Source: Calditrichota bacterium
GTDB lineage: Bacteria; Calditrichota; Calditrichia; Calditrichales; J004
Direction: 5' to 3'
Assembly: GCA_003696775.1 (NCBI GenBank)
Contig: RFFS01000125.1
Span: forward strand, 1 to 63,075
Length of the DNA: 63,075 nucleotides
The notes under the pieces were generated by a model. That model was not told the origin of the DNA, ran no database searches, and saw only the letters and a program-made list of their open reading frames with translations. The translations under genes and the position numbers were made by a program. Shown here in pieces: positions 4,894 to 20,900 of this stretch (positions are counted from its first letter, which is position 1; each line of letters begins with the position of its first letter).

Positions 4894-5718
4894 ATGCGCA
4901 CTTTGCAAAATAAAACATATATCATTACGGGCGCCAGCAGAGGGATCGGCCGCGCCATTGCCATACGCCTGGCCCGTGCCGGCGCATCGGTTGTGGCTGC
5001 CGCTAAAACCACCCGAAAACATCCCAAATTACCGGGCACCCTGCCGGAAACGGTGGAATTGGTGGAAAAAGCGGGCGGAAAAGGACTGGCCGTGCGTACC
5101 GATGTGCGTTTCCCGGAACAACTGGACAACCTGGTGGCCAAAACTATCGCGACTTTCGGACGTCTGGACGGTGTGATTCACAATGCCGGCGCCATTTCTC
5201 TTACACCGTTGGCGGAAACATCCGTCAAGCTTTACGATCGCATGCATCAGGTGAACGATCGCGCGGTTTTCCTGCTTAGCAGGGCGGCGTATCCTTATTT
5301 AAAAGAACATGGCGGACACATCGTCACTCTTTCACCTCCCCTTAACCTTAAAGATAAATGGCTGAAACCGCATATCCCTTATACGGTCAGTAAATACAGC
5401 ATGACCCTGTTGGCCATGGGCATGGCCCTGGAATTCAGGGATGCAAATATCGCCGTCAACAGCATATGGCCGGCCACTCTAATTGCCACGGCGGCCATCG
5501 AATTCGCCGTTGGCGATCGCGCCTTGTTGAACCATTGTCGCAAACCCGACATCATGGCCGACGCGGTTTATGAAATTTTGTGTCGTGATGCGCGGACATT
5601 AACCGGACAAGCATTGATCGATCAATCTTTTTTGGAGCAATGCGGTTACAACACGTTTGAATCGTATGCTTATAACCCGGATTATGCCGATAAAATCCAT
5701 CCGGATATTTTCCTTTAG
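4894..5718 (+). CDS. Short-chain dehydrogenase/reductase (SDR; HSDL2-like)
   Basis: TGASRGIGRAIA cofactor motif and YTVSK (YxxxK) catalytic motif. ATG at 4894 is preceded by AGGGAGG. Confidence 0.85.
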   Translation: MRTLQNKTYIITGASRGIGRAIAIRLARAGASVVAAAKTTRKHPKLPGTLPETVELVEKAGGKGLAVRTDVRFPEQLDNLVAKTIATFGRLDGVIHNAGAISLTPLAETSVKLYDRMHQVNDRAVFLLSRAAYPYLKEHGGHIVTLSPPLNLKDKWLKPHIPYTVSKYSMTLLAMGMALEFRDANIAVNSIWPATLIATAAIEFAVGDRALLNHCRKPDIMADAVYEILCRDARTLTGQALIDQSFLEQCGYNTFESYAYNPDYADKIHPDIFL

Positions 5719-5743
5719 GGAAGGCAAGGGATAACGGGCGAAC

Positions 5744-5752
5744 TATAATTTG
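5744..5752 (+). promoter_or_regulatory. Candidate -10 box (TATAATTTG) upstream of the polyamine/PspA cluster
   Basis: Perfect TATAAT followed by TTG, about 60 nt upstream of the 5812 start. I saw no convincing -35. Confidence 0.3.
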
Positions 5753-5811
5753 TAACCCTTAAACGCGCTGTTTAACTTACCGCGCAACAACCATATCGGT
5801 GTATTCAACGA

Positions 5812-7482
5812 ATGACCTCAAAAACTTACACACATCGGAACGCCGGACGCATGCTCTATTTTGCCATGCTGGTTTTGGGAGCAAGCGGTCTGGCCTATGA
5901 ATATTCCTTCAGTAAAGTATCCGCCGATATTCTGGGTAATTCCGTTCAGCAATGGGCGTTGATCATTGGTGTGATGATGTTTTTTATGGGAGTAGGCAGC
6001 GATGTACAAAAATATCTTTCCGATGACAACCTGTTCGACAGCTTTATTTTACTGGAAAGTGTTGTGGCATTATTGGGCGCCACGGGTCCGGTGTTGTTGA
6101 TCTACGCCTACGGGGTTATGCCGCTTCATTTTGTTCTGGTACAATATTTTTTTATCATCAGCATCGGACTGATTATCGGCATGGAAATTCCGTTAATAAC
6201 CCGCATCAACGCCCGATTTTTACCGGAGTTGCGTCTTAATCTGGCGGCGGTATTGAAAATGGATTACATCGGCGCGTTGATCGGCGCTTTGGTATGGGTC
6301 TTCGTTTTGATTACCCGCTTCGAAATCAGCCATGCGGCGTTTATAATCGGCTTTGTCAACTGGGCTGTCGCCCTGATGACGATGATCTTTTTTTATAAGG
6401 AAATACGCCGCAAATTATGGGTATGGTTGTTCACCTGGCTGACGGGCATCGCTTTGATCATCGGTTTTTTTAATGTGAAACACTGGCGTGTGGAGGCCGA
6501 GCAATACCTCTACCGCGATCCGGTAATTTACAGCCATACCACGCCTTATCAGCATATCGTATTAACCAAAACCCAAAACGGTGATATCTATTGTTATATC
6601 AACGGCCATTTGCAGTTTTACAGTGGCGATGAGTTCATATACCACGAAAACCTGGTGCATGGTGTCATGGCCGTGGCGCCGGAGCGCGCCCGGGTGCTTA
6701 TTTTAGGTGGCGGTGACGGACTGGCGTTGCGTGAGGTGCTCAAATATCGCGATGTCCGGCTTGTTACCCTGTGTGACCTGGATGTGCAAATGACCACACT
6801 GGCTAAAACACAACCGGAATTGCAACATCTTAATCGGCATGCCTTTTGGGATGACCGCCTGCATGTGGTGCAAAAACCCGACGTGCAACCGGGAGCGCCT
6901 TATACGGTTTACAGCCGCAACCGAAACATCCTGTGGCGCGGCGGGGCTGATTCCGTGGCCACGGTGCATGTGATAAATATGGACGCGGCGCGGTTTCTGG
7001 AGCGCATTTCCGGTACCTACGATGTGATCATCATTGATTTTCCCGATCCCAACGCGCCGGAACTTTCGCACCTTTATTCCCGTACCTTCTACGAGCATGT
7101 ACGTAAAAAATTAAGCCGGAACGGCCTGATGATCCAACAATCCACATCCCCTTACCACGCCCGTGAGGTATTTTTATGCATAGGGAAAACCATGCGTGCC
7201 GCCGGTTTAAGCACGTTGCCGTTAAAGGACAATGTGCCCAGCTTTGGGGAGTGGGGCTGGTGGATTGCCGGGCGCAACGATGTTTATTCGCCTTCAAACT
7301 TGCGCCAACGAATAAACAACGTCGATACTCTGACCGTCCCGACGCATTATCTGACCGCGGCAACACTCAAAAGCAATCTGATTTTCCCTAAAGGTATTCT
7401 GCCCGATGAGACCATCGAAGTGAATGCGCTTGGTACGAATATAATTTATCGTTATTATCAGATGGCATGGCAAAATGAATAA
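5812..7482 (+). CDS. Polytopic-membrane + spermidine-synthase-fold fusion (polyamine aminopropyltransferase-like)
   Basis: About 220 aa of hydrophobic helices, then SpeE-type motifs: LILGGGDGLALRE (SAM/dcSAM site), LCDLD, IIIDFPDP. Confidence 0.8.
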   Translation: MTSKTYTHRNAGRMLYFAMLVLGASGLAYEYSFSKVSADILGNSVQQWALIIGVMMFFMGVGSDVQKYLSDDNLFDSFILLESVVALLGATGPVLLIYAYGVMPLHFVLVQYFFIISIGLIIGMEIPLITRINARFLPELRLNLAAVLKMDYIGALIGALVWVFVLITRFEISHAAFIIGFVNWAVALMTMIFFYKEIRRKLWVWLFTWLTGIALIIGFFNVKHWRVEAEQYLYRDPVIYSHTTPYQHIVLTKTQNGDIYCYINGHLQFYSGDEFIYHENLVHGVMAVAPERARVLILGGGDGLALREVLKYRDVRLVTLCDLDVQMTTLAKTQPELQHLNRHAFWDDRLHVVQKPDVQPGAPYTVYSRNRNILWRGGADSVATVHVINMDAARFLERISGTYDVIIIDFPDPNAPELSHLYSRTFYEHVRKKLSRNGLMIQQSTSPYHAREVFLCIGKTMRAAGLSTLPLKDNVPSFGEWGWWIAGRNDVYSPSNLRQRINNVDTLTVPTHYLTAATLKSNLIFPKGILPDETIEVNALGTNIIYRYYQMAWQNE

Positions 7483-7506
7483 ACCCATCAACCACCGAGG
7501 TGTATT

Positions 7507-8346
7507 TTGAAGGAAAATGTGTTTAAATATCTGGCCCTGTTCTTTTTCTTTATGGTCATCTGGTCCTTTTGCAGAGGCCCTGAGGAGAGCGTTCAAAACG
7601 GGGATGTGTATGATGTGACCGTGCAAACCCTTACGCCGGCCAGTGAGGGGTTGGACCTAAGAGCGGTTGGCGCTTTGCTGAAAAAGGCTAAGGATGCCGA
7701 GACACTGGAAAAATTGCTGAACGATCCCAAAGAGGGTGTTAATAATCTGGAATTAAACGGCGACGGACAAGTGGACTATATTAAGGTGACGGAATACGGC
7801 AACGGAAATATACGCGGTTTTGCTTTGTCCACGGAACCGGCCAGGGGCGAGGAGCAGGAGATCGCTACCATCGAAGTGGAAAAAAGCGGTGATAAGGCAA
7901 ATGTGGAAATTCAGGGTAACGAACAAATTTACGGTACCCGTCAGTATTATCATTCCAGTTTCGGGTTAACCGACTTTCTCATTATGAGCTATCTGTTCAG
8001 TCCGCATCGTTTTTATATGTCGCCATGGAATTATGGCTATTATCCGGGCTATTATCAACCCTGGCGTACCGCGGATTATAACCGATACCGTCACCGGGTT
8101 TCCCAATACAGTAAAAGTGCCGGTTTTCGGTTTAGTCGTACGGAGTCCGTTAAAAGTCCGGTAACATCGCCTAAAGCGGGTAAAACCGCGAGCCATGTAC
8201 GTGCGCCCTTAAAAAATCCCACAAAATCGCAAAAAAGTTTTCAGGCACGTACCCGTCAAACCCGGCGCAGCGGCGGTTTTGGACGTTCCTCCTCCGTGCG
8301 TCGCGGCGCCTCGTCCCGTAGTGGCGGTTTTCGTTCCGGTAAATAA
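7507..8346 (+). CDS. Hypothetical anchored/secreted protein with aromatic-rich core and Arg/Ser/Gly tail (possibly YjfM/DUF1190-like)
   Basis: TTG start with GAGG 6 nt upstream. N-terminal hydrophobic segment LALFFFFMVIWSFC. WNYGYYPGYYQPW. C-terminal RRSGGFGRSSSVRRGASSRSGGFRSGK. Confidence 0.55.
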   Translation: MKENVFKYLALFFFFMVIWSFCRGPEESVQNGDVYDVTVQTLTPASEGLDLRAVGALLKKAKDAETLEKLLNDPKEGVNNLELNGDGQVDYIKVTEYGNGNIRGFALSTEPARGEEQEIATIEVEKSGDKANVEIQGNEQIYGTRQYYHSSFGLTDFLIMSYLFSPHRFYMSPWNYGYYPGYYQPWRTADYNRYRHRVSQYSKSAGFRFSRTESVKSPVTSPKAGKTASHVRAPLKNPTKSQKSFQARTRQTRRSGGFGRSSSVRRGASSRSGGFRSGK

Positions 8347-8360
8347 ACAAGAGGTTCATA

Positions 8361-9266
8361 ATGGAAAAGTTCATAAACGTATTGTTCGACACGGAGCCGG
8401 TTGCCTGGCTGGTTCAATTTGAAGGTGCGGTCTATTTTGTCGTTGTCTTTCTTATTCTCTATTTCGCCAGGCTAATGTATGACATGTTAACGCCTTTTAG
8501 TCTTAACGATCAATTGACGTCGCGGGATAATAAAGCCGTGGCCGTATCCTTTGGCGGCTATATGGCCGGTGTGTTACTTGTTCTGCTGGGCGTTCTTCAA
8601 AGCGGTGGCGTTGGCAACGGACAGACTCCCGCGCATGTGGATTTAATTAAAGATTTGCTGGATACGCTGATTTGGGGCGTGATCGGAGTCGCGCTACTAA
8701 ATATCGCCCGGTTGATCAATGACACGTTTATCCTGCGTAAATTCAGTGTTATTAAGGAGTTGACGGATGATCGCAATATTGGCGTGGGCGCGGTATTGTG
8801 GGGCGGCTACCTCGGTTCCGCGCTTATTGTACAGGCCGCCATTTCCGGAGAATCCAACGGATGGGGCATGGATATCGCTCTTTCCGTGCTCTATTTTCTG
8901 ATCGGACAGGCCGGATTTATTCTCTACGCTTATATCTTTCAATGGCAAACCCGTTTTGATGTGCATGCCGAAATCGAACGTGACAACGCGGCCGCCGGAG
9001 TCTCTTTCGGGCTGAGTTTATTGGCGGTGGGTATCTTGCTGGCGGGTTATCTGCATCATTACGATTCCATTCCGGGCTTTTTTGTCTGGCTTGTCATCAG
9101 TTGGTTTGTGCTGGCCGTCAGTCGATATTTAAGCGATAAATGGGTGCTGCCCGGCGCCTTGCTGGATGAGGAAATCGCGCAGGATGGTAACTGGGGCGCC
9201 GCGTTGGTGGAAGGCAGTATTGCCGTGGTCATTGCCTTGTTGATGATTCCCGTCTTTTTGATTTAA
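8361..9266 (+). CDS. Membrane protein with four tandem DUF350 (YjfL-like) repeats
   Basis: Four copies of the DUF350 pattern, each followed by a Gly-rich TM helix: LTPFSLNDQLTSRDNKAVAVSFGGYMAG; FSVIKELTDDRNIGVGAVLWGGYLG; RFDVHAEIERDNAAAGVSFGLSLLA; LLDEEIAQDGNWGAALVEGSIA. Confidence 0.8.
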   Translation: MEKFINVLFDTEPVAWLVQFEGAVYFVVVFLILYFARLMYDMLTPFSLNDQLTSRDNKAVAVSFGGYMAGVLLVLLGVLQSGGVGNGQTPAHVDLIKDLLDTLIWGVIGVALLNIARLINDTFILRKFSVIKELTDDRNIGVGAVLWGGYLGSALIVQAAISGESNGWGMDIALSVLYFLIGQAGFILYAYIFQWQTRFDVHAEIERDNAAAGVSFGLSLLAVGILLAGYLHHYDSIPGFFVWLVISWFVLAVSRYLSDKWVLPGALLDEEIAQDGNWGAALVEGSIAVVIALLMIPVFLI

Positions 9267-9279
9267 TTTCAGGATACAT

Positions 9280-10071
9280 ATGAATAAATACCAACTATCA
9301 TCGGAACAACGTAAACGGTTTGCCGGGCTTTATCTGTTGGAATACATGATCAACACGCCTTACACGCCGCCTATTTTCCTGGAAGGCAACGATCAGGACC
9401 TGGAAGAGATTCTGGCCTGGATGATGGCGGAAGAATGGATAAGCATTTTCAAGGATTCCATTTACATCCCCACGGAAAAGGGGCGCCTAACGCTTAAAAA
9501 CTTTATGGCCCGTTATAGCGAATATCTGACCATGTTCGATATTTACTGCGCGGTGGACTTGCAGGAAGGAGAATTTGCTTTTTCCTATTGGAATGAATTT
9601 GAAGATGACGACGCGTTCCGTGCCTTTCTAAATGAAGATCGTTGGGATGATTTACGTATCGCCGTGGCGGAATATAAAAAGATGGACCCCGTGGAAATCG
9701 TTTTTATGAGTTTTATCAACGAAGGGCGATTTGGACGCAATGAAAGCGGCTGGCAATTCGACTTGCTGCTTGGCTCCGTATGGGACGAAATTCTGGAAAT
9801 ATGTGATACGGCCATCCATTGGCGGGAACTGGGTTACGAGGATGAACAGGGCCGCGTGGATGCCCGCGATGTGATCGAGGATATTATTGTGCAGGGCACG
9901 GAAATCATGTTGGAATTGCTGGGTGACGCCTATCACCCCGCGCCACCCGCCCATGATGCGGACAGTGATGCGGAATATGTGGTAGAAAGCGTTGATCTGC
10001 CGGAATACGACAGCACGCATTATCGTAAATATCTTGATCCGAAATATAAAAGTAAGAACTGGATTAACTGA
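9280..10071 (+). CDS. Hypothetical highly acidic cytoplasmic protein
   Basis: 263-aa ORF in operon context. I recognise no motif. Asp/Glu-rich, no hydrophobic segments. Confidence 0.6.
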   Translation: MNKYQLSSEQRKRFAGLYLLEYMINTPYTPPIFLEGNDQDLEEILAWMMAEEWISIFKDSIYIPTEKGRLTLKNFMARYSEYLTMFDIYCAVDLQEGEFAFSYWNEFEDDDAFRAFLNEDRWDDLRIAVAEYKKMDPVEIVFMSFINEGRFGRNESGWQFDLLLGSVWDEILEICDTAIHWRELGYEDEQGRVDARDVIEDIIVQGTEIMLELLGDAYHPAPPAHDADSDAEYVVESVDLPEYDSTHYRKYLDPKYKSKNWIN

Positions 10072-10077
10072 TTAGCC

Positions 10078-11163
10078 ATGACGCTGTTATTCAGACTGTT
10101 TCGAAAACTGTTCCACCATGGCGGAAGGAATAATCTGCTGCGTGTCCTCAGCTTAACGCTGATGTTGAACATCATCTTCGGCGTGGCTTTTTATTTTGCC
10201 GAGCGCGATGTCCAGCAGGGATTATCCCTGACAGATGCCATCTGGTGGGCAATGGTCACCATGACCACCGTGGGGTACGGCGATATATACGCTCAAACCT
10301 GGATCGGTCGTTTTCTGATTTCCTACCCGTGTATGTTGCTTGGTATCGGCATTCTCGGTTATCTGGTGGGGACGGTGGCCGAAATGATTTTGGATTACGG
10401 TTCCCGCAAAAAGAAAGGATTATTGAGGATTAAAATGAACAATCATCTGATTATCTGTAATTATCCCGGTGAACAAAAGGTATTGCGTGTGATCGAGGAA
10501 CTACGGCGCAGCCGGGAATTTTCCGATGCGGGTCTGATCCTGGTTGCTCAAAAGCCGGAAACTTTGCCGGAATCGTTGACGGAGCAAAATGTACGCTTTG
10601 TGCGCGGTCATCCGGCGCGGGAAGAGATTTTGGACAAAGCGGCTGTGCGTCAGGCCCGTGGAGTCTTTGTTCTGGCGCAGGACCCGGCCGATCCGGCTTC
10701 GGATACCTTGTCGTTTGCCATTGCCACACAGGTGCATATAATGGAAAAAGAGATGAAAAAAGACCTGCGCGTGGTGGTGGAACTGGTTAGTCAGGAGAAC
10801 ATGGCCATGATGCGCCGTTCGGGCGCAGACGGTATTGTCAGCGCCGATGGAATTATGGATGCTCTGATAGCCCAGGAATTTTTATTTCCCGGTTTAAATT
10901 CGGTTTTTCATGAAATATTAAGCAATGCCCGTGGCAGTCAGTTTTACATCGTTCCCAATAAACTGGGGGCCGGGCGATACGGTGCATTATGCCGTAAAGC
11001 ATTGGAATCCGGACGTCCGATTACCCTTGTGGGGCTGAAACGCGGGAAACAAACGCTGCTGAATCCCGATCCATCTCAGGAGATCCATCAAGATGATGAC
11101 CTGATTATATTAGCCCCGGGCCGTAATGAGTATGAATCTTTAACTAGTGAAAAAATGACCTGA
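10078..11163 (+). CDS. Two-TM K+ channel with cytoplasmic RCK/TrkA-N domain (MthK-like)
   Basis: Selectivity filter TTVGYGD between two hydrophobic helices, followed by a Rossmann-like RCK region (HLIICNYPGEQK...). Confidence 0.85.
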   Translation: MTLLFRLFRKLFHHGGRNNLLRVLSLTLMLNIIFGVAFYFAERDVQQGLSLTDAIWWAMVTMTTVGYGDIYAQTWIGRFLISYPCMLLGIGILGYLVGTVAEMILDYGSRKKKGLLRIKMNNHLIICNYPGEQKVLRVIEELRRSREFSDAGLILVAQKPETLPESLTEQNVRFVRGHPAREEILDKAAVRQARGVFVLAQDPADPASDTLSFAIATQVHIMEKEMKKDLRVVVELVSQENMAMMRRSGADGIVSADGIMDALIAQEFLFPGLNSVFHEILSNARGSQFYIVPNKLGAGRYGALCRKALESGRPITLVGLKRGKQTLLNPDPSQEIHQDDDLIILAPGRNEYESLTSEKMT

Positions 11164-11186
11164 AAAGTTTAAAAAAAGGAGCGACA

Positions 11187-11597
11187 ATGAACGTAACTAT
11201 TGCCACACGTAAAGAAACCGACTTGGTGACATTTCTTGAAATGAATGAATTTGAAACAGAGCAACTCGCGGAAAATATTTTACGGGTACGCCGCCATGAG
11301 GAACTACCGGTTTATGTCAGTTTTAACGGCGACAGCCTGTACTTTGAAGTGGATCTGGGCAACATCAGCGCCATTGCCGATCAGGACCTCTATTTTAAAT
11401 TACTCGATTTAAACACAGAAGTGCTGCCCGTAAGCTTTGGCATCAATAACAGCCATCCGGAAGACCCGCGTCTGGTTTTGGTGGAAAGCCGGGAAACCGA
11501 TGACTTGAGCGATCAGGAATTGTTGGCGGTCTTTGATGCCCTGGAACTGGCTGTTGATCGCGCGGAAGCGTTGCTGCAACCCCTGTTGAACGGATAA
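11187..11597 (+). CDS. Small acidic protein, possibly YbjN/YjfI (DUF2170)-like
   Basis: 136 aa, acidic, alpha/beta pattern. The family call is from size, composition and neighbourhood only. Confidence 0.45.
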   Translation: MNVTIATRKETDLVTFLEMNEFETEQLAENILRVRRHEELPVYVSFNGDSLYFEVDLGNISAIADQDLYFKLLDLNTEVLPVSFGINNSHPEDPRLVLVESRETDDLSDQELLAVFDALELAVDRAEALLQPLLNG

Positions 11598-11599
11598 AA

Positions 11600-12367
11600 A
11601 TGGGTCGTAAACAACACGCGCCGTATCGGATACTGTTTGAGAATGAATCTTTGGTCGTTGTGGATAAATCGGCGGGCGTGCCGGTTATCCCGGAACGATT
11701 TAACGCCGGAGCCGTGGCCCTGAACCACCTTTTACAGACACGATCGGGGCGTCAGGAGCAGGCTGTGTGGGTGGTACACCGCATCGATAAAGACACCAGC
11801 GGAGTGGTGCTGATGGCTAAAACAGCCGGTGCCCATAAAGTTTACAGCCGTCTTTTTGCCGAACAGGCGATGCATAAAGAGTATCTGGCGATCTGCCAGG
11901 GCCGTGCCGACGCCCCGGAGGGTTGTGTGACCCTACCGTTACGCGTCTCATCGAGGGGTGTCACACGCGTGGATACCCTGGAAGGTAAACCATCCGAAAC
12001 CCGTTATCGGGTGCTGAAGCAATACCGCCGTTTTGCAACGGTTCAGGCGCGCCCCCTTACCGGACGACAGCATCAGATACGGGTGCATTTGCGTGCGGTG
12101 GGGCTGGGGTTGGCCGTGGACCCGCTTTATATGAAGACAACAGCCGTGGACCTGTCCATGATCAAGCGGGGGTATAAATTTAAACCCGATACGACGCCAA
12201 GGCCTTTGTTAAACCGTCTTTCCCTGCATTGTAACGTCCTGGCGTTTGATGATCCCATAAGCGGGCATTCCATGCGTTTTGAGGCCGAACTGCCCACGGA
12301 CATGCAAACGCTGATTAAACATCTGGAAAAATGGGGCGCCGAACAAACAAGCACAAATTTATCATAA
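11600..12367 (+). CDS. RluA-family pseudouridine synthase (lacks S4 domain)
   Basis: Catalytic HRIDKDTSGVV motif and GRQHQIRVH motif. Starts 2 nt after the previous stop. Confidence 0.85.
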   Translation: MGRKQHAPYRILFENESLVVVDKSAGVPVIPERFNAGAVALNHLLQTRSGRQEQAVWVVHRIDKDTSGVVLMAKTAGAHKVYSRLFAEQAMHKEYLAICQGRADAPEGCVTLPLRVSSRGVTRVDTLEGKPSETRYRVLKQYRRFATVQARPLTGRQHQIRVHLRAVGLGLAVDPLYMKTTAVDLSMIKRGYKFKPDTTPRPLLNRLSLHCNVLAFDDPISGHSMRFEAELPTDMQTLIKHLEKWGAEQTSTNLS

Positions 12368-12378
12368 AGGAGAAAAAC

Positions 12379-13068
12379 ATGAGTATTTTCAGCCGCCTGT
12401 TTAAAGTGGGTGAAGCCAAAGCCAATCAAATTGTGGATAGTCTGGAAAAACCGGAATTGATGTTGGAGCAGGCCATCAAAGACAAGGCGAAGCAGATCAG
12501 CGAAGCCAAAAAAGCTGTGATGGGTGTGATTGCTACCGAAAGGCAAACCCGTGCCTTGTTGCTTAAGGAACAAAACGAAAAGGAAACCTGGGAAACCAAG
12601 GCCCGGCAGGCCCTGCAAAGCGGCCGGGAAGACCTGGCGGCCCGTGCGCTGACCCGCGCCACGGAACATGAACAAAAAGCGACTCAATTACAGCAAACCT
12701 GGCAGTCCCAAAAGGCAAGCGTGGACAAACTGAAGCTGGAAATCGTCAAAATGGAAGATGAATTGGCTGAATTCAAACGTAATAAGGACTTTATAATCGC
12801 CCAGGCTAAAACCGCCGAAGTCAAAAAACAGATTTATCAGGCCAAGGCCAAAATGTTGAACGATCGCAGCGCAGACGATTTAATGGCGCGCATGAAAGCC
12901 AAAGCCGAACGCGCCTCTTTTGAAGCCGAAGCCGCGGAAGAAATGGCGGTGGATGTTAGTGGGGACAGCCTGGAAAAGGAATTTGAACAATTGGGTGCCG
13001 GCAGCGCTTCCACCGAAGTGGCCGCAAAACTGGAAGCCATGAAAAAACAATTGGGAAGCGGCCGGTAA
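12379..13068 (+). CDS. pspA: PspA/IM30-family membrane-stress protein (YjfJ/PspA-like)
   Basis: MSIFSRLFKVGEAKANQIVDSLEKPELMLEQAIKD N-terminus typical of PspA/IM30, with long coiled-coil composition. AAGGAG SD precedes the ATG at 12379. Confidence 0.9.
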   Translation: MSIFSRLFKVGEAKANQIVDSLEKPELMLEQAIKDKAKQISEAKKAVMGVIATERQTRALLLKEQNEKETWETKARQALQSGREDLAARALTRATEHEQKATQLQQTWQSQKASVDKLKLEIVKMEDELAEFKRNKDFIIAQAKTAEVKKQIYQAKAKMLNDRSADDLMARMKAKAERASFEAEAAEEMAVDVSGDSLEKEFEQLGAGSASTEVAAKLEAMKKQLGSGR

Positions 13069-13445
13069 TGCATTCGCCCATTTTAGGACGGCATTTGCTA
13101 CTGGAATTGTACGATTGTGCCAATGATTTTTTGAATGACCCGGCAAAAATTGAAAACGGGTTGCAACAGGTGATACTGGCTATCGGTGCCACGGCGGTAC
13201 AAAGCGTTTTTCATCGCTTTGAGCCGATTGGGGTGAGCGGTGTGATTGTCCTGGCGGAAAGTCATCTGACCATTCATACCTGGCCGGAATATCGCTATGC
13301 GGCACTGGACCTGTTTACCTGCGATTCGCGAATCGATTACAATCAGGCTGAAGCTGCGTTCAAGGCCTTATTTAAGGCCGGACGCAGCGAGAAAACGGAG
13401 CTGAAGCGCGGACAGATGTCGCATATACAAAAGCAGGTTATTTAA
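13068..13445 (+). CDS. speD: S-adenosylmethionine decarboxylase proenzyme, small pyruvoyl class (SpeH/SpeD)
   Basis: VLAESHLTIHTWPE self-cleavage (E|S) motif, 125 aa. ATG shares one base with the pspA stop (TAATG). Confidence 0.85.
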   Translation: MHSPILGRHLLLELYDCANDFLNDPAKIENGLQQVILAIGATAVQSVFHRFEPIGVSGVIVLAESHLTIHTWPEYRYAALDLFTCDSRIDYNQAEAAFKALFKAGRSEKTELKRGQMSHIQKQVI

Positions 13446-13459
13446 AAAAGGGGCGTAAA

Positions 13460-14317
13460 ATGAAAAAGATCGGTCTGGCTCTGGGTGGCGGGGGCGCGCG
13501 TGGTCTCGCGCATATAGGCATTTTACGGGTTTTTGAGCGGGAAAACATTCCCGTGGATGTTATTACCGGATGCAGCATCGGCGCAATTATCGGCGGACTG
13601 TATGCCTATTTCCAATCCGCGGAAAAAACCGAATCCTTCCTCCGAAAGATGTTATCTTCCGAGGCTATTGACGATCTCGATCTGGAAATATTTACATCCA
13701 TTGAACACAAAAGCATGACCGAACAACTGTTCGACTATATTAATAGCATACGACGCTATTTTTCCATGCTTAAAACACTGAATCAACAGGCGATTTACAC
13801 AACGGAAGACGTCAATAAAATTTTTAAGGATTTTCCCGATGCCGCGATCAAAGACCTGGATGTGCGCTTTGCCACCATTGCCACGGACCTGATTTCCGGA
13901 AGAGAAATTGTGTTGGACGAAGGCCCGTTAAAAGAAGCGGTGATCGCCTCCGCCTCCATTCCGGGTATCTTTCCGCCGGTTAAAATTAAAGACCTGTTGT
14001 TGATAGACGGCGGCGCCACGGATACCATACCCGTACAGGTGGTGAAAGGCCAGGGCGCGCAATATGTTGTGGCGGTGGATGTGTCCAAGGATATCCATGA
14101 TGTGGATGATCTGGACAACGGCCTTAAAATTATTTATCGCGCCGAGGATATTGTCACCTGGCATTTGACGCAGGAACGTCTGGCCGGTGTGGACGTGTTG
14201 ATCAGCCCCAATGTAAAAAAGTACAGTTGGGCGGCCATTGATAAGATGGATGAAATTATAGAAGAGGGCGTTTTCGCCGCGGAAAACGCCCTCGATCTGC
14301 TGCAAAAGTTGTTATAA
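13460..14317 (+). CDS. Patatin-like phospholipase
   Basis: GGGGARG oxyanion motif, GCSIG nucleophile elbow (GxSxG), and IDGGATD catalytic Asp motif. Confidence 0.85.
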   Translation: MKKIGLALGGGGARGLAHIGILRVFERENIPVDVITGCSIGAIIGGLYAYFQSAEKTESFLRKMLSSEAIDDLDLEIFTSIEHKSMTEQLFDYINSIRRYFSMLKTLNQQAIYTTEDVNKIFKDFPDAAIKDLDVRFATIATDLISGREIVLDEGPLKEAVIASASIPGIFPPVKIKDLLLIDGGATDTIPVQVVKGQGAQYVVAVDVSKDIHDVDDLDNGLKIIYRAEDIVTWHLTQERLAGVDVLISPNVKKYSWAAIDKMDEIIEEGVFAAENALDLLQKLL

Positions 14318-14327
14318 GCGAACAGGA

Positions 14328-16256
14328 CTATTTTAAAAGCATCATCCTGCCGTTATATACGGATGTACCGGCCCGGAAACGGTAGTAATAAATTCCGGAC
14401 GGCAACATACGTTGCGCGTCGTTGCGGCCGTCCCAGCTTATTTCATGACGACCGGGCTCATGGACACGGTTTACCAGCAGGCGGACCCGTTGCCCGGCGG
14501 TATTAAATATGTCGATGCGCACCCGTTGGCGTCGGGGCAGGTCATAACGCAGAGTGGTGGCCGGATTAAACGGATTGGGATAATTGGGATAAAGCCGAAT
14601 GTGTGTGGGTAAAGCAACCGGTGGTGCTTCCCGTATGCCGGTAATTTGGCCGTCCACATAAAGCACCGCACGGTCGGGACGATAAGCGATGTGACATAAA
14701 AAGCTGTCGGCACATACAAGTGTATCAAACTGACCCGTTGTACTTTGATAAGTCATGACCACAAAGCTGTCGCCCTCCTGTGGAACAAACGGCGCTGTAA
14801 AGGCTACACGCATGGTGCCGGCCAATTCCGCAGAACCATCAATTTGAAGCAGGTCATGGTCTTCACCCGCAAAATAACCGCCGATATCCACATTGAACAC
14901 GCTATGAGCCGATAGGGGAAACCGGCCCGTTACGGTTAACGTATCGGGCGGTCCGTCCGGTGCGATATGCCCGTCGTTTTGCTGAAAATAGTCATAAATT
15001 TCCAAAACCCCGGCCCCCTGAATCCAACCCGTGGAGTCATTGTATAATCCTGCCTGACAGGTCAGTACGCCGTTGTGGTCGATAAGGATTTTACCGGCAT
15101 TTTCCAATGTAACAGGCGAGAAAAGATTTTGGTGGCCGCCCGCCTGATGAAGTGTCCCCGCGTTATAAAACCAACCCGCATTGTTTCCCCATGTATCATA
15201 TGCACCGGCCATTAAATGAATCGTGCCGAAGTTTCGAAACACACCGTCAAAACCAAAATTGACACTGCCTTTTTTCCACTCAATTTCTGTTACATTGTTT
15301 ACAGTACCTAAAATCCATTTGATTTCGGAACTGTCGATTTCACAATGGGCGTTTTTCAGCAGGGTTACCGTAGCGCTGTCACTCAATACACCGCCGTGCC
15401 ATTTAAGTGTTCCGGCAATGGAAATATCGGCGTTGCCCACCAGTTGGCCGTCATTTTCCAGTTGGACAATCATGCTGTCTGCAAATCGTAATGGTGTGCC
15501 ATTCACCCGGAAAATCCCCCCTTGCGTGGAAAATGTTCCCGCGCCACTAAGAACCGGATTGTCTATGATGTGGGTTCCGTAAGAAGCCGACAATGTTGCT
15601 CCGGAAGAAATATAAACACTATCCCGGATGGTACTGTGCAAGGCAAGGTCCAGTGTGCCGTTTATGATATTGATACGCCCCATATTCGTAAATATGGTTT
15701 CCAGATGGGTGGTGGAGGGCGTCGTGGCGTTTAAACTGTCCCGTTTTATTAAAACGCCTTCATTTTGCATTTCTCCCCACTGAAATCCTCCGATCGTGCC
15801 GTTGTTATACAACTCCAGAACGTGACGATTGATAAAAAAGGTGGAATTCTCGTAAAACCCGATCGATCCTTCGCGTACGATAAACGTTCCGTTGTTTTCC
15901 ATTGTCCCGGCAAAGCCTTTTTCATCGCGGCCTTCTATTAAAACCATGGCGGAATCCTCTATGACAATTCTACCCGAACCATAAATTTTACCACCCTGCC
16001 ATTGAAAGTTTTTATGAATGTAGAGTAGGCCGTTGTTGTTGATAACGGCAAGTCCGGAGAAAAGTAAGGCCCCCACCGAGGCGGTATCGCCCGTGTTGAT
16101 GGTGATTTCACCGCTGTTTATTATAACAGTGTCCCGCGCACCGGGAATGCCCGTTGGGTTCCAGGTGGATGACTGCTTCCAGTCACCGGAACCGAATGCC
16201 GGAGTATAAGTTGTTTGCGCGGTAATAAGTAGCGGGTAAAAGAGAATAAAAGTCAT
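14328..16256 (-). CDS. Secreted beta-helix repeat protein with T9SS (Por) C-terminal sorting domain
   Basis: Gly/Asn/Thr-rich repeats typical of parallel beta-helix or autotransporter-type passengers. C-terminus LYPNYPNPFNPATTLRYDLP...SGIYYYRFRAG...GRMMLLK matches the T9SS type-A CTD pattern. Confidence 0.8.
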   Translation of the reverse strand: MTFILFYPLLITAQTTYTPAFGSGDWKQSSTWNPTGIPGARDTVIINSGEITINTGDTASVGALLFSGLAVINNNGLLYIHKNFQWQGGKIYGSGRIVIEDSAMVLIEGRDEKGFAGTMENNGTFIVREGSIGFYENSTFFINRHVLELYNNGTIGGFQWGEMQNEGVLIKRDSLNATTPSTTHLETIFTNMGRINIINGTLDLALHSTIRDSVYISSGATLSASYGTHIIDNPVLSGAGTFSTQGGIFRVNGTPLRFADSMIVQLENDGQLVGNADISIAGTLKWHGGVLSDSATVTLLKNAHCEIDSSEIKWILGTVNNVTEIEWKKGSVNFGFDGVFRNFGTIHLMAGAYDTWGNNAGWFYNAGTLHQAGGHQNLFSPVTLENAGKILIDHNGVLTCQAGLYNDSTGWIQGAGVLEIYDYFQQNDGHIAPDGPPDTLTVTGRFPLSAHSVFNVDIGGYFAGEDHDLLQIDGSAELAGTMRVAFTAPFVPQEGDSFVVMTYQSTTGQFDTLVCADSFLCHIAYRPDRAVLYVDGQITGIREAPPVALPTHIRLYPNYPNPFNPATTLRYDLPRRQRVRIDIFNTAGQRVRLLVNRVHEPGRHEISWDGRNDAQRMLPSGIYYYRFRAGTSVYNGRMMLLK

Positions 16257-16521: not shown

Positions 16522-17904
16522 TCAGCGATAAAATCCGCCGCCGTCTATGCCCACTTCCTTTTCCCAATAGGGATTTTGCAGTTCCTTGCGATGGGTGGAA
16601 TGGATAAGGTAATATCGTCCGAAACCGTTTTTATCGACAAAAACAAAAATAACACCGCCCTGAATTTGATTGTATTTCCATATTTCATAGGGCTTAACGC
16701 CGGAAGTACTGGGATGGCGTTCAATTTCATCGGGCTCGCCGTATAAAATCAAAACCCGGCCGCGATCGGTTTTCCAGCCTTGCTGACCGCTGCGTGAAAA
16801 ACGGGCGTTGGCCTCTTCCAGCCGGCGTAAAAAAAGTGCACGACTATTACCCGCATCCTGATGACGGCTTTTATCCTGTCGTTGCCAGAAACGGGTTAAA
16901 AAGGTGCGCATGGCATCGGCGTTGTCCAGTTCATCAAATACTTTTTGTTCTTCCCGACTGGCGTAATATCGGGCCTGGTCAAATTCCTTTTCCAGATCGT
17001 CGCGACTCATGCCCACAAAGGCTTCATCCATTTCCGGGAGGCTGCTACCCTTTGACGCGGCGGGTTTACGCCGCAGCTTGACCACGGCAAACCGCTTGCT
17101 GATGCGCGTATTGGCACGGGGCGCATCACCCGAAACCGCAATATTCAAATTATACACACCGGCCGGCAGGCCCATGGCATTGAATCCGCCGACTTCCACC
17201 TGATCACCGCTTTTAACGGCACGCTGGCGTGGGGGACCCTGCTTAATTGTATCGCCCTTTAGATTGGTGACATAATAGCTGACATGATACGAGTTGAACC
17301 GATCCAGATTATAGAGTTCCACATAATAATAGAGCATGGGATGCAACACATCGAAGCGGTTATGGGCGTTGGGGATAACCGTCATGCCGTTTTTGTAAAA
17401 CAGACCCTGCGCCTGCGGGCTTTTTTGGATGGAACCCGCCAGTTGGATACCGGAAATGGCCAGTTCCCTGCCAAACGCCGGTACAAAAACGGTTAGTTCA
17501 TATTCGCCGGTACGGTGGGCCAACAGGTCTTCCAGTTGCAAACGGGCGGTGTAAGTGCCGGGTGGGAGCAGGGCATGGAAAACATCGTTAAACTGATTGA
17601 ATAAATTCAGCCGGGATGTATCGCTTGCCAGATTTTTATAAAGATGCGCGGACTGAAAAACCGTGTCCTGCTTATGCAATACCAACAGCCGGGTGCGGTA
17701 TTGGGCATAAAGACTATCCTGATGTTGCCGGTATTGCAAATTGCCCTGGTAAAAGGATATGTAAAATTCCACATAGGCAGTTGCCGAATCGTTTTTAAAA
17801 TAAGCATAGTCCGCGCTGATGGGTAAAAAACTTGTTTGCGCGCTTAACAACGGACTCAATAAGAACAGGGTCAGCACGCATTTACTGAAAAGCGACCGAT
17901 ACAA
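16522..17904 (-). CDS. GWxTD-domain secreted protein
   Basis: GWKTDRGRVLILYGEPDEI motif near the C-terminus. Preferred start is the TTG at 17904 (AAGGAG 9 nt upstream), giving signal peptide (M)YRSLFSKCVLTLFLLSPLLSAQ. ATGs at 17940 and 17985 are alternatives deeper inside smc. Confidence 0.8.
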   Translation of the reverse strand: MYRSLFSKCVLTLFLLSPLLSAQTSFLPISADYAYFKNDSATAYVEFYISFYQGNLQYRQHQDSLYAQYRTRLLVLHKQDTVFQSAHLYKNLASDTSRLNLFNQFNDVFHALLPPGTYTARLQLEDLLAHRTGEYELTVFVPAFGRELAISGIQLAGSIQKSPQAQGLFYKNGMTVIPNAHNRFDVLHPMLYYYVELYNLDRFNSYHVSYYVTNLKGDTIKQGPPRQRAVKSGDQVEVGGFNAMGLPAGVYNLNIAVSGDAPRANTRISKRFAVVKLRRKPAASKGSSLPEMDEAFVGMSRDDLEKEFDQARYYASREEQKVFDELDNADAMRTFLTRFWQRQDKSRHQDAGNSRALFLRRLEEANARFSRSGQQGWKTDRGRVLILYGEPDEIERHPSTSGVKPYEIWKYNQIQGGVIFVFVDKNGFGRYYLIHSTHRKELQNPYWEKEVGIDGGGFYR

Positions 17905-20900
17905 TTTTTGAAACTCCTTCTTCTTCCATAGTGACGCCATACATGTTTTTGGCGGCTTCCATGGTGCGTTTATTATGGGTGACAACTAAAAACTGGGTGG
18001 TGTCGGTAAACTGCTGAAGGGCGTCAGTAAAGCGTTTAATGTTTACATCATCCAGCGGAGCATCCACCTCATCCAATATACAAAACGGACTGGGTTTGAC
18101 CAGATAAATGGAAAAGAGCAAGGAAATGGCCGTCAGGGTCTTCTCCCCGCCGGATAACAGCGACAGGGTTTGCAGATGGCGTCCCTTGGCCGTTACTTCG
18201 ATGTCGATATCGGCTTCCAGCGGGTCTTTGCTCTCATCCAGCCGAATGGTTCCCTTGCCATTGGGGAAAAAGGACGAGAAAACACGCTCGAAATGGCCTT
18301 TGATCGCATCAAAAGTAGTCACGAATTTTTCCCGGGCGGTTGTGTTTATTTTGTCGATGGTTTCCACCAGGGAGGCTTCCGCGCGCTCCAGATCGTCACG
18401 TTGCTTACTTAAAAAAGTGAGCCGTTCGTTTTCTTTTTCATATTCGCTTACCGCGAGAGGATTAACCGGTCCCAGGTGTTTAATCCGGTTTTTCAACGAC
18501 TGAATTTCCTGTTCGGTTTCATCTTCTTCAAGATGTTCGCTGGGGATATGGGCATCTATGTCCACGCTGTATGTTTCATTGATGGTCTGGCGGATGCTTT
18601 CCGTTTTATAATTGTATTCGTTGATCTTCACTTCAAGATTTTTGGATTTTTCCAGGGAAGAATCGTGTTTGCGGCGGTATTCCCGGATCTCGTTTTCCAG
18701 TTCCCGGCGTTTATCCTTGAGCTCATTATAACCGAGTTCCAGTTCTTCGCGTTTTTTATCCAACGTATCCCGTTCTTCCCATAGCACGTTGCGTTGCGCC
18801 ATACGGGATTCGATATCGGTTTTCAATTGTTCGCTATGCGTGCCCACATCGCGGATGGCTTTTTCCAGCCGTTCGATGGCTTTCCGCGCCTCATCAACGG
18901 ATTGACGGGAACGGCGGATGTCATTTTCGCGGTTATGCACCTGATTGTTGGCGTTGCTCAGGCGCAACTGGGTGTTCTGATACGTGTCCAACAACTGTTG
19001 GAAGGTATCGTTCACGGCGTCAAAGTCGTTGGTGCGTCGGATACTTTCTTTTTCAAGTTCGTTCAGGGCGTCTTGTTCTTCCCGCAGGTTGAGTTGAATG
19101 TCATCGGCTTCTTTTTTCAGTCGTTCGTTTTGTTCCGTTAATCGTTGAATCTGAGTGGCGGATGCTTCCCATTGCCGACGCATCTGGTCGCGCCGGTATT
19201 GTGCCTGACGCGCTTCGTTGTTCTGTTGATAATAACGGGTACGTATCTCTTCCAATTCCTTGCCGGCTATTTCCAGACGGTCACGTATCTCCGCCAGAGC
19301 TTCGCTTTTTTTATCCATTTCCCCGGAAAGACCCAATAAGCGTTTTTCCAGAGCCATGGCCTGGGTGCGCAGTTCCTTTAGTTTGTTTTTACGACTCAGA
19401 ATATGTGCTTCGTTTTTGGAACTGCCGCCGCTGATTTCCCGCCCAAAACGCACGGTATGTCCGTCCCTGCTGATATAGCGGTAGGCCGCCGTTTCCGCTG
19501 AGGCGCGGATGGCTTCCGGTAAATTTTCCACTATCAACACATCGCCAAGCAAGATATGCAACAGGTTCCGATACGCGTCGTCGAATTCCAGATGGTCCAC
19601 CAGTCGGTTGCCATGCGCGGGCAGTTCCGGTGCCCGTATGGTATTGATCCGATCCAGCGGAATACAGGTGATGCGCCCCTTATTCTGTTCCCTGACCGTT
19701 TGAATCAGTTTTTCCGCCACTTCCACCGTATCCACCACAATGTAATTGAGAGCCTCGCCCAGAGCCTGTTCACTGAGAGCCGCATAAGCATCCCCGGCCT
19801 GGATAAGTTCCGCCAAAGGGCCGTGTACGCCGGGAAACTCCCGACGATGGGTCATCACATATTGCGTGCTTTGCGCGTGACCTTCGTATTTGCTGATGAC
19901 GTTTTCATAAAAAGATTGCCGACTTTTCACTTTCTCAAAATCGGAGAGCGCTTCGTTGTAACGATTGCGCAGTTCTTCGAGTTGGGCCACCCATTCCTTA
20001 TCCTGTTGCCGTAAGCGATCCATTTCCCGTGCCAGGGCCGATTGTTTTTCTTCGATATCTTCCGATTGCCCGGTAAATGCGTCGATCTGAAGGGTGATGG
20101 CGTCCAATTCTTTTTTAAGACGTTCACGTTCGATTTCGACTTTTTCGATCTGCTCTTTGTTGAATTCCAGTTGATAGTTTTTTTTGTCGATGGCTTCTTT
20201 TTTATTGCTTAATGCCTGGAATTTTTCACGATAGGCGCGGTTTAGCCGGTCGATATGCGCTTTTTCCGCTTCAATTTGTTTTTGCATGGCGCGGCGTTCT
20301 TCCGCCACCAGATTGAATTCGGTTTGTAAAGCGGCCTGATTTTCCTTTAACGTGTCCAGCTCGGTGGTCATCTCTTCGATGTTATTCCGCCAGGTTTCGA
20401 TTTTTCGATTGTATTCATCAATTTCGGAATGATACCGCTCCCTGTTTTTAGCCATTTCCGTGATGCGCGTTTCAGCCACGGCGTTTTCACGGTTGATGGT
20501 GTTGATTTTTGTGTCCAGTTCATAAATACGCCCACGGACACTTTTCAACTCCTGTTCCAGAGCGATGCTTTGCCTGTTATAATCTTCCAACAGGGCTTCT
20601 TCTATGGTAATTTGATGTGAGCTTTCTTCCTTTTCGCGGCTCAGGATAGACAGCTCCTTTTCCAGCGGCGCAATCCGGTCGCGTAAGTTGTGATAACGAT
20701 AGACCGCGAGATCGATTTCCAGCTTTTTCAGTTTTTCGGTGTACTCCAGATAGCGGCGTGCCTTGCCCACCTGGCGATTCAGGGAGGCGACGTTTTTCTC
20801 CACTTCCAGTATGATATCATTGATCCGGTCCAAATCCACGCGTGTGGCGTCCAGTTTGCGCAATGCCGATTTCCGGCGTGTTTTGTACTTAACCACACCG

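Follow-up and report, generated by a model that had tools for sequence, protein, structure and literature searches.

A widespread operon joining a membrane-fused aminopropyltransferase with PspA, DUF350 and a K+ channel: a candidate envelope-maintenance module

Why should a gene for PspA, a bacterial ESCRT-III protein, lie in one tightly packed cluster with genes for polyamine enzymes? Two independent comparative studies have raised the question of this repeated linkage, neither giving a mechanism, and related operons have already been described, likewise without one (Ravi et al., 2024; PMC11237479). The question is raised again by ten genes (g1-g10, in order) at positions 5812-14317 (+ strand) of a 63,075-nt stretch of Calditrichota DNA, contig RFFS01000125.1 (hereafter the window, i.e., the whole stretch that was analyzed). 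An earlier note on this DNA had proposed that the ten genes form a membrane-stress module around the S-adenosylmethionine decarboxylase SpeD, a membrane aminopropyltransferase and PspA. We found this to be right in outline, but neither the ten-gene extent nor the novelty claimed for the K+ channel held up: the region is an instance of a widespread, vertically conserved operon with a core of g1-g6, g8 and g9 and, in many phyla, a ninth gene for an AAA+ ATPase. The reading that best explains the whole, and in which we have moderate confidence, is that of an envelope-maintenance operon combining aminopropyl transfer at the membrane, sealing by PspA and compensation by K+. This variant is the most self-contained one known, since a source of decarboxylated S-adenosylmethionine (dcSAM) and a membrane-fused transferase are encoded in one operon; the same tightly packed operon also holds a K+ channel, an acidic family (g4) that is new and extremely conserved and, in most phyla, the AAA+ ATPase. 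It is found in at least two cultured Verrucomicrobiota isolates, with Pelagicoccus sp. SDUM812002 (L031) and Puniceicoccaceae K14 (L039) as cultured carriers, so the question is directly testable. What is new here is the census of the operon, g4 as a marker family, the AAA+ ninth gene, the half-transporter fold of g1 and the prediction that its catalytic domain faces outward.

An eight-gene core across phyla

Related loci were collected by scanning the alignment of g4 homologues against one genome per GTDB species; this gave 116 relatives, and we retained 80 loci. More than ten phyla are represented; Verrucomicrobiota supply the majority, and the rest belong to Calditrichota, Thermodesulfobacteriota/Deltaproteobacteria, Myxococcota, KSB1, Nitrospinota, Planctomycetota, Lentisphaeria, Acidobacteriota, Gemmatimonadota and Spirochaetota. 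Presence was scored with phmmer, the ten window proteins being searched against the six-frame open reading frames (ORFs) of the 80 loci, and the counts listed here refer to genes on the same strand and to informative loci.

g1; 5812..7482; + strand; seven-helix membrane domain (residues 1-235) fused to an aminopropyltransferase of spermidine synthase (SpdSyn) fold; core member; 59/67 loci
g2; 7507..8346; + strand; N-terminal anchor, acidic ectodomain with a DxDxDG/EF-hand-like loop, and basic low-complexity tail (RSGGFG); core; 67/70 loci
g3; 8361..9266; + strand; protein of eight transmembrane (TM) segments with two DUF350 (YjfL-type) domains; core member; 72/78 loci
g4; 9280..10071; + strand; acidic cytosolic protein with a winged-helix-like N-terminal and a novel C-terminal domain; core, marker of the operon
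g5; 10078..11163; + strand; 2-TM K+ channel (TVGYGD filter) with a C-terminal RCK domain; core, missing from a minority of loci; 62/75 loci
g6; 11187..11597; + strand; small acidic protein of CesT/Tir-like chaperone fold, partner in a CesT-PspA dyad; core; 67/69 loci
g7; 11600..12367; + strand; RluA-family pseudouridine synthase with an HRID motif and no S4 domain, between the CesT-like gene and pspA; 4/56 loci
g8; 12379..13068; + strand; PspA/IM30 (bacterial ESCRT-III) with an N-terminal amphipathic MSIFSRLFKV helix; core; 66/68 loci
g9; 13068..13445; + strand; class 1b pyruvoyl S-adenosylmethionine decarboxylase (AdoMetDC), its start overlapping the pspA stop by 1 nt; core; 49/63 loci (51/80 on either strand)
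g10; 13460..14317; + strand; patatin-like phospholipase (RssA-like), motifs intact, outside the conserved module; 2/51 loci
AAA+ ATPase; ninth gene of related loci; 43/59 loci

The ten genes had been taken for one unit, and the test of neighborhood conservation proposed at that time bears this out for eight of them, which are colinear in most of the 80 species-level loci and in more than ten phyla; the RluA and patatin genes drop out. The commonest string, g1 g2 g3 g4 g5 g6 g8 g9 AAA, was found in 26 loci. Median gaps between neighbors across loci are 6-24 nt (6 nt between g4 and g5), and the CesT-like gene adjoins pspA in 63 related loci at a median gap of 14 nt, with the RluA gene lying in between in the window. 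Independent gene calls with Pfam labels gave the same order in L001 (a 4.7-Mb Calditrichales genome) and L002 (an 8.8-Mb genome), and partly in L003/L004. That ten unrelated housekeeping genes were packed together by chance would suit g7 and g10, which are shared with close relatives only, but is contradicted for the core eight, which keep order, strand and such short gaps in many phyla; protein identities of 44-79% also argue against recent horizontal copies of a single element. A chance neighborhood is thus scarcely credible.

Clustering of the unassigned neighboring ORFs revealed the ninth recurrent gene, which lies directly after speD and encodes an AAA+ ATPase of ~445 aa with PF00004, AAA_lid_6 and a weak TerB-like N-terminus (e.g., L039:13540-14877, + strand). 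It follows speD in 36 of 38 cases in Verrucomicrobiota, and also in Myxococcota and elsewhere; none of the Calditrichota loci has it, and tblastn of the 63-kb window gave no match. Some loci depart from the common string. The operon is whole except for the K+ channel in L059, L060, L062, L063, L073, L079, L082 and L084, mainly Akkermansiaceae and Luteolibacter and mostly metagenome-assembled genomes. Reduced loci in 'Moanabacter'-like Verrucomicrobiota (L003, L004 and L040) keep g2, g4, the K+ channel, CesT, PspA, SpeD and the AAA+ ATPase; they have no TM-SpdSyn fusion and no recognizable DUF350 gene nearby, and adjoin the ATP synthase operon. A 172-aa multi-TM ORF lies upstream in these three and in L035 and L002. 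In L016 (Lentisphaeria), g2 and the K+ channel are missing as well, and what remains is g4, the CesT-like gene, pspA, speD and the AAA+ ATPase. In L001 (positions 13926-15727), pspA and speD are separated by genes for a class I methyltransferase and a PLP enzyme of Cys/Met metabolism, a hint of some tie to SAM/methionine recycling.

Among the core genes, g4 marks operons of this type best. It had been called an acidic orphan; acidic it is (isoelectric point, pI, 4.28), but not an orphan, since 549 homologues were found at 51-77% identity over full length in Calditrichota, KSB1, Deltaproteobacteria, Gemmatimonadota and others. An exhaustive profile search of 1.84 billion representatives gave 296 clusters at 50% identity, and the best-scoring 150 of these 296 have 95-335 aa, with no added domain or fusion among them. 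The alignment has a mean column identity of 64% and many invariant aromatic and acidic residues. g4 had no Pfam match; its family is compact and is not covered by any Pfam model. An AlphaFold2 (AF2) model of g4 has a mean predicted local distance difference test (pLDDT) score of 86 and a predicted TM-score (pTM) of 0.84. Foldseek against the PDB gave a best E of 0.07, the top matches being the winged-helix regulators FadR, PadR, DtxR and MukF over the N-terminal part only, and no significant match to the C-terminal domain. The protein is acidic in all three segments, the putative recognition helix included. A role as DNA-binding autoregulator was rejected as unlikely, both that helix and the whole protein being acidic, and an ESCRT-II-like winged-helix adaptor, though an attractive idea, was left unsupported, with no ESCRT-II match in Foldseek. 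Many homologues (alignment A1; e.g., P0046, P0063 and P0116) have a hydrophobic C-terminal tail rich in W and L (...SPLWLGLWLL), which could associate with the membrane; g4 of the window ends KSKNWIN, without such a tail.

The two genes outside the core have a narrow distribution. g7 matches PseudoU_synth_2 (2e-29) and scores 176 bits against TIGR00005, below the cutoff of 192.7; L001/L009, L005 and L012 are the only loci with an RluA gene in this slot, and in the other Calditrichota the CesT-like gene is followed directly by pspA, with no RluA gene. g10 matches Patatin (7e-33) and scores 130 bits against the RssA model, below the cutoff of 272; only in the closest relatives, L005 and L012, whose g4 is 77-79% identical, is speD followed by a patatin gene. 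A single locus, L005, repeats all ten genes of the window in order. The RluA and patatin genes are Calditrichales-specific passengers and do not count as components of the conserved machine. Judged from spacing, g7 would necessarily be co-transcribed with its neighbors, and the patatin gene is probably co-transcribed with the cluster here.

The layout of the cluster is as the earlier note described it. The ORF listing places all ten genes on the + strand, separated by exactly 24, 14, 13, 6, 23, 2, 11, -1 and 14 nt if pspA starts at the ATG at 12379; the g8 ORF may start at 12331 or 12379, and the latter was chosen on the size of its homologues (228-232 aa). The cluster ends convergently against a minus-strand gene, which ends at 14328, 10 nt past the patatin stop. 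Upstream of g1 lies the putative promoter element that had been noticed:

TATAAT hexamer; 5744..5749; + strand; possible -10 box within the 93-nt leader

The hexamer is indeed present, but as evidence of a promoter it is weak. The promoter scan found no -35 partner for it; the window has 53 copies of TATAAT vs. ~40 expected, with four further + strand copies within the cluster; and the leaders of four Calditrichota relatives showed no alignment with the cluster leader and no conserved promoter motif. In line with the earlier note, no terminator-like match lies between the genes: the + strand terminator-like matches in 5812-14317 are all intragenic and are not enriched (23 vs. 16.3 +/- 4.5 in shuffled sequence). 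A scan of the whole window at Rfam gathering thresholds gave one tRNA only, and a permissive Rfam scan of the leader (5600-5900) gave no match, with no riboswitch or attenuator detectable.

On either side lie ordinary chromosomal genes (a histidine kinase, an ACT-domain protein, an SDR, a protein with a C-terminus of the type IX secretion system [T9SS] type, a GWxTD protein and SMC), and their synteny is limited to close relatives. The convergent neighbor (14328-16256, - strand) has a T9SS-type C-terminal sorting region (FlgD_ig/CHU_C/Por_Secre_tail, each weak), the GWxTD domain gene lies at 16522-17985 (- strand) and SMC comes next at 17882-21394; these three genes fit a chromosomal locus of the FCB group or Calditrichota. 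Such flanks bear on another reading, in which the cluster would be an anti-phage defense island with the patatin as effector, beside an ion channel and a 'phage shock' protein. The patatin does match generic PADLOC phospholipase effector models, weakly (4e-8). However, the other nine proteins gave no system-specific PADLOC match (that of g1 to mad2 reflects a generic methyltransferase fold), patatin is absent from 49/51 loci, the flanks are housekeeping genes, and no mobile-element genes were seen. We rejected the defense reading on the grounds that PADLOC gave nothing system-specific, and consider it very improbable.

The fused aminopropyltransferase and its partners

Profile hidden Markov model annotation upheld all the domain calls that had been made from the sequence alone, and none of the DUF350, PspA or SpeE-fold calls failed. 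The motifs GGGDG, DFPDP, TVGYGD, the RSGGFG/RSGGFR tail, GGGxRG/GxSxG/DGG and HRID can all be seen in the translations. g1 matches Spermine_synth (8e-32) and scores above the cutoff of the NCBIfam equivalog PRK03612 ('polyamine aminopropyltransferase'; 571 bits vs. 472); against NF037959 (fused major facilitator superfamily [MFS]/spermidine synthase) it scores 41.5 bits vs. a cutoff of 40, the best stretch covering residues 383-462 only. An exact-sequence look-up of g1 returned no record. The solved structures nearest to its SpdSyn domain are thermospermine synthase ACL5 (6bq2; 4e-28) and the broad-specificity aminopropyltransferase of T. thermophilus (1uir); the domain carries a weakly conserved (0.36) insertion of ~35 residues. 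Across 56 homologues, YHE, GGGDG and DFPDP are invariant (one position, 0.98), as are both Asp of CDLD; the dcSAM-binding GGGDG and the acceptor-binding D-x-x-D-P motif are both there, at >= 98% in the family. For its part, g9 matches AdoMet_dc (8.6e-37), lies above the TIGR03330 cutoff (125.5 bits vs. 75.7) and aligns with T. maritima AdoMetDC (1vr7; 4e-32) through ESHLTIHTWPEY...FTC, with the ES cleavage site, the His and the Cys kept. Judged by these residues, g1 and g9 both look active, and the pair would be able to make dcSAM and to transfer its aminopropyl group. The idea that SpeD feeds a membrane aminopropyltransferase is consistent with the intact catalytic motifs of both enzymes.

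The same two enzymes could conceivably do something more ordinary, namely make free polyamine (spermidine, thermospermine or longer) at the membrane, in an osmotic or ionic stress module that involves no covalent modification. The MFS-like domain of g1 or the DUF350 protein would then export or retain the polyamine, the K+ channel would balance charge and osmolarity, and PspA would guard the proton-motive force. The equivalog score of g1 speaks for such a local supply, as do its nearest solved relatives, 6bq2 and 1uir, both of which are true polyamine synthases, and its acceptor-site acidic motifs, all of which are retained. Many carriers belong to marine lineages, E. coli is known to swap putrescine for K+ on osmotic upshift, and the surface spermidine reported for P. 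aeruginosa (see below) would be a precedent. Local supply leaves the strict order of g2, g4 and the CesT-PspA pair with the enzymes without explanation, however, and the subset of loci that lacks the K+ channel keeps all else. Against it also stands the reported failure of related fusions to complement a speE mutant, together with a reported lack of spermidine in species that carry them. We would take this alternative seriously, although on balance we think it unlikely.

The membrane domain of g1 bears on where the reaction may take place. As a search query it retrieved no more than 28 proteins, of which many are short or carry a 'partial' annotation; the retrieved proteins supplied the alignment for an AF2 model, built with 25 homologues, in which residues 1-235 form seven long helices (pLDDT 91, pTM 0.87). 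Foldseek matches of this model in the PDB are mostly MFS transporters (POT, PHT1, sialin, NorA, NorC, SLC37, NarK and others), with a probability of ~1.0 and query TM-scores of 0.5-0.58 over ~190-240 columns; a few low-scoring ZIP and ENT chains also appeared. On the model, the N-terminal domain reads as a six-helix MFS half plus TM7. The family-averaged number of K+R residues is 2.2-3.1 in the N-terminus and loops 2, 4 and 6, and 0-1 in loops 1, 3 and 5, a bias that matches the MFS rule that each half begins and ends in the cytoplasm; hydropathy analysis found no eighth hydrophobic segment. Taken together, the odd number of helices, the K/R bias and the topology rule for MFS proteins predict, without proving, that the catalytic domain faces the periplasm via TM7. 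Moreover, since SpdSyn domains dimerize, we infer that a g1 homodimer could rebuild a 12-helix MFS-like transporter.

A transferase fused to a transporter-like domain is also found in MprF, and by analogy the catalytic domain of g1 might remain cytoplasmic and aminopropylate an inner-leaflet lipid head group (e.g., that of phosphatidylethanolamine), which the MFS-like domain or the DUF350 protein would flip as a cationic lipid, thereby altering surface charge. The fusion in g1 has the right architecture for this, dcSAM would be produced by g9 in the cytoplasm, and a K/R-rich juxtamembrane linker after TM7 favors an inside location. Seven helices, an N-in charge bias and no eighth segment nevertheless place the domain outside unless one helix is non-spanning, and we consider an MprF-like scheme quite improbable.

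The remaining core proteins include two at or in the membrane. g2 has no Pfam or NCBIfam match but 709 homologues, and a single, N-terminal hydrophobic segment. Its ectodomain has a pI of 4.5 and its tail one of 12; the 90-residue basic tail is 60-70% conserved despite its low complexity, and a loop of DxDxDG/EF-hand type, NN[LI]DL[ND]xDGKVDYIKVTEYG, is invariant in the family. The lipobox-like Cys22 is not kept in the family; since this residue varies, 'anchored', the word first used for g2, is apt. A second TM segment, with the basic tail in the cytoplasm, was rejected, as the family-mean hydropathy peak is just 0.4. A 99%-identical copy of g2 (P0121 = window 7507-8346) occurs on a 42-kb Joint Genome Institute metagenome contig, so genomes near-identical to the source of the window have been sampled elsewhere. 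g3 matches DUF350 (5.2e-54) in two 133-position copies and has eight hydrophobic segments with an alternating K/R pattern; the '4x DUF350' ascribed to it counts older 2-TM units and equals two DUF350 copies with 8 TM.

The channel g5 matches Ion_trans_2 (8.6e-16), TrkA_N (4e-8) and Slo-like_RCK (1e-5), and on inspection its RCK domain lacks the GxGxxG dinucleotide motif, as in Ca-gated MthK and unlike NAD-binding KTN domains. g6 (pI 4.09) scores above cutoff against CesT_Tir_1 (1.4e-6) and CesT (3e-5), and below cutoff against DUF2170 (E = 0.025). g8 matches PspA_IM30 (3.2e-37) and falls below the equivalog cutoffs for classical PspA (TIGR02977; 76.5 bits vs. 243) and LiaH. PspA_IM30 is the only component of the classical Psp system that we found among the cluster proteins, with no PspB, PspC or PspF.

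A proposed role in the envelope

How might these parts work together? In the envelope-maintenance reading, the AdoMetDC (g9) would make dcSAM, and g1, instead of supplying the cytoplasm with bulk spermidine, would pass the aminopropyl group of dcSAM on to an amine acceptor at the membrane. g1 is probably a dimer, in which two six-helix bundles would rebuild an MFS-like transporter. If its catalytic domain is periplasmic, then dcSAM, the acceptor or the product would cross via the transporter-like domain or the DUF350 protein, and g2 might be the extracytoplasmic partner of g1. The CesT-like/PspA pair would carry out ESCRT-III-type sealing and remodeling of the inner membrane, with the AAA+ ATPase in a Vps4-like role in those loci that have one, and the RCK-gated K+ channel would compensate charge and voltage. 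g4, which is acidic, aromatic-rich and not plausibly DNA-binding, could be a cytosolic adaptor or ligand sensor. In a more specific form of this proposal, g1 dimers would pass cytoplasmic dcSAM to the periplasm-facing domain, which would attach the aminopropyl group covalently to some part of the envelope, for instance a lipid head group, an amine of the cell wall, or g2 at its basic tail or ectodomain; PspA/CesT (with the AAA+ ATPase), the K+ channel and a g4 sensor would respond to, or buffer, the change in membrane charge. We regard this form as decidedly doubtful. An outward-facing catalytic domain would, if true, mean export of dcSAM and a new kind of envelope modification, and envelope aminopropylation would, if true, be a previously unknown modification chemistry across many phyla.

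Earlier work on related fusions points in a similar direction. Li, Kurihara, Kim, Liang and Michael reportedly found in 2019 that MFS-SpdSyn fusions failed to complement an E. coli speE mutant and that spermidine was absent from species carrying such fusions. The same authors are said to have seen a class 1b AdoMetDC and an MFS-SpdSyn-like fusion clustered with DUF350, and to have proposed aminopropylation of a substrate other than putrescine.

Several points weigh against the envelope-maintenance reading and its more specific form. The fusions of Li et al. may be a different subfamily from g1, because the NF037959 match is marginal and covers part of g1 only. The NCBIfam name of g1 is plainly 'polyamine aminopropyltransferase', with which ordinary polyamine synthesis would be compatible. 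The outward-facing prediction draws on helix parity, a simple K/R count and an analogy of fold, the E-values of the MFS matches are modest (0.009-0.3), and the linker after TM7 is itself K/R-rich (3.5 in 25 residues). For export of dcSAM, we know of no precedent. The roles offered for g2, g3, g4 and g6 are guesses from composition and context, co-transcription of the cluster is inferred from spacing alone, and the interplay of polyamine, K+ flux and lipid remodeling put forward in the earlier note is conjectural. Finally, the K+ channel is missing in ~13/75 loci and speD is not adjacent in ~14/63, and because of these absences neither is strictly obligatory in cis.

Comparison with known systems

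Three groups of CesT/Tir-PspA operons have been described, with the proposal that PspA monitors the level of polyamine or the aminopropylation of other substrates (Ravi et al., 2024; PMC11237479). Group 2, of the Shewanella oneidensis SO_3765 type, encodes a LipoSIG+Ctha_1186+low-complexity protein, an 8TM YjfL/DUF350 protein, a TM-spermine-synthase fusion (7TM-SpdSyn), CesT-PspA, DUF4178 and RHH. With it, the window operon has in common the membrane-fused SpdSyn, the 8-TM double DUF350 protein, a protein with signal or anchor, globular part and low-complexity region, and the CesT-like/PspA pair. g2 is probably the 'Ctha_1186 + low-complexity' protein of that study (Table S3), to which we likened it by architecture; the lipobox Cys is not conserved in g2 homologues. 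The window operon differs from group 2 in having the SpdSyn gene first in order and in holding g4 and the K+ channel in its middle, with no DUF4178 or RHH match among its ten proteins; beyond group 2, it has the g4 family, the K+ channel and an in-operon AdoMetDC, and in other phyla the AAA+ ATPase.

Group 3 (E. coli yjfIJKLMC and Alteromonas) has an ATP-grasp ligase, a 4-TM DUF350 protein, DUF1190, DUF2491 and sometimes an Ion_trans_2+TrkA K+ channel, and its sister variants carry AdoMetDC, a linkage for which Li et al. (2019) are credited (PMC11237479). The window shares with it a CesT-fold protein, a PspA paralogue, DUF350 and a polyamine-related enzyme, as well as the Ion_trans_2 + TrkA K+ channel of the Alteromonas variant and the AdoMetDC of the sister variants. 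The enzymes differ, that of group 3 being an ATP-grasp, GspS-like ligase (YjfC) and that of the window an aminopropyltransferase, as do the DUF350 proteins (4 TM vs. 8 TM in g3), and no Pfam or NCBIfam match to the YjfC-like ligase, DUF2491 (YjfK) or DUF1190 (YjfM) was found in the cluster. The content of the E. coli locus had been correctly described in the earlier note. Of the likeness drawn there to the yjf genes, the common superfamily stands, but similarity in sequence is remote: g8 and YjfJ share 28% identity over 81 aa (E = 7e-5), and g6 gave no BLAST match to YjfI. The K+ channel had been placed outside the described neighborhoods, but channels with an intracellular ligand-sensing domain are already known from related CesT-PspA polyamine operons (PMC11237479), and g5 belongs to the core. 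In RefSeq, yjfC of E. coli K-12 (L085:9029-10001) is named 'peptide--spermidine ligase'. The one experimental clue that we found for any relative is that E. coli yjfIJKL was strongly upregulated via a promoter mutation in heat-adapted strains (PMC12492005), and a survey of Psp systems does not mention polyamine, K+ or DUF350 contexts (Popp et al., 2022).

The half-MFS fold of g1 would fit the description 'MFS' that Li et al. reportedly gave to their fusions, although g1 is a full-length PRK03612 member with only a marginal NF037959 match; the context of PspA, g4, the K+ channel and the AAA+ ATPase was apparently not their focus. In P. aeruginosa, PA4773-PA4774 (speD2/speE2) are said, from work by Johnson et al. 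in 2012, to make surface spermidine that protects the outer membrane. Those genes would resemble the present pair as a dedicated SpeD/SpeE set for envelope protection, not bulk polyamine, and reportedly differ in that their enzymes are soluble, PmrAB-regulated and without linkage to PspA, DUF350 or a K+ channel.

A further parallel is with ESCRT-III and Vps4. PspA is a bacterial ESCRT-III protein, and the AAA+ ATPase gene found with it in 43/59 loci recalls the Snf7-Vps4 pair, a parallel that has been discussed before (PMC11237479); the AAA+ protein of the related loci, with AAA, AAA_lid_6 and a weak TerB-like N-terminus, is not Vps4. By gene content, the window operon reads as a hybrid, with the enzyme and membrane parts of group 2, the K+ channel and AdoMetDC of group 3 and its variants, and g4 in place of DUF4178 and RHH.

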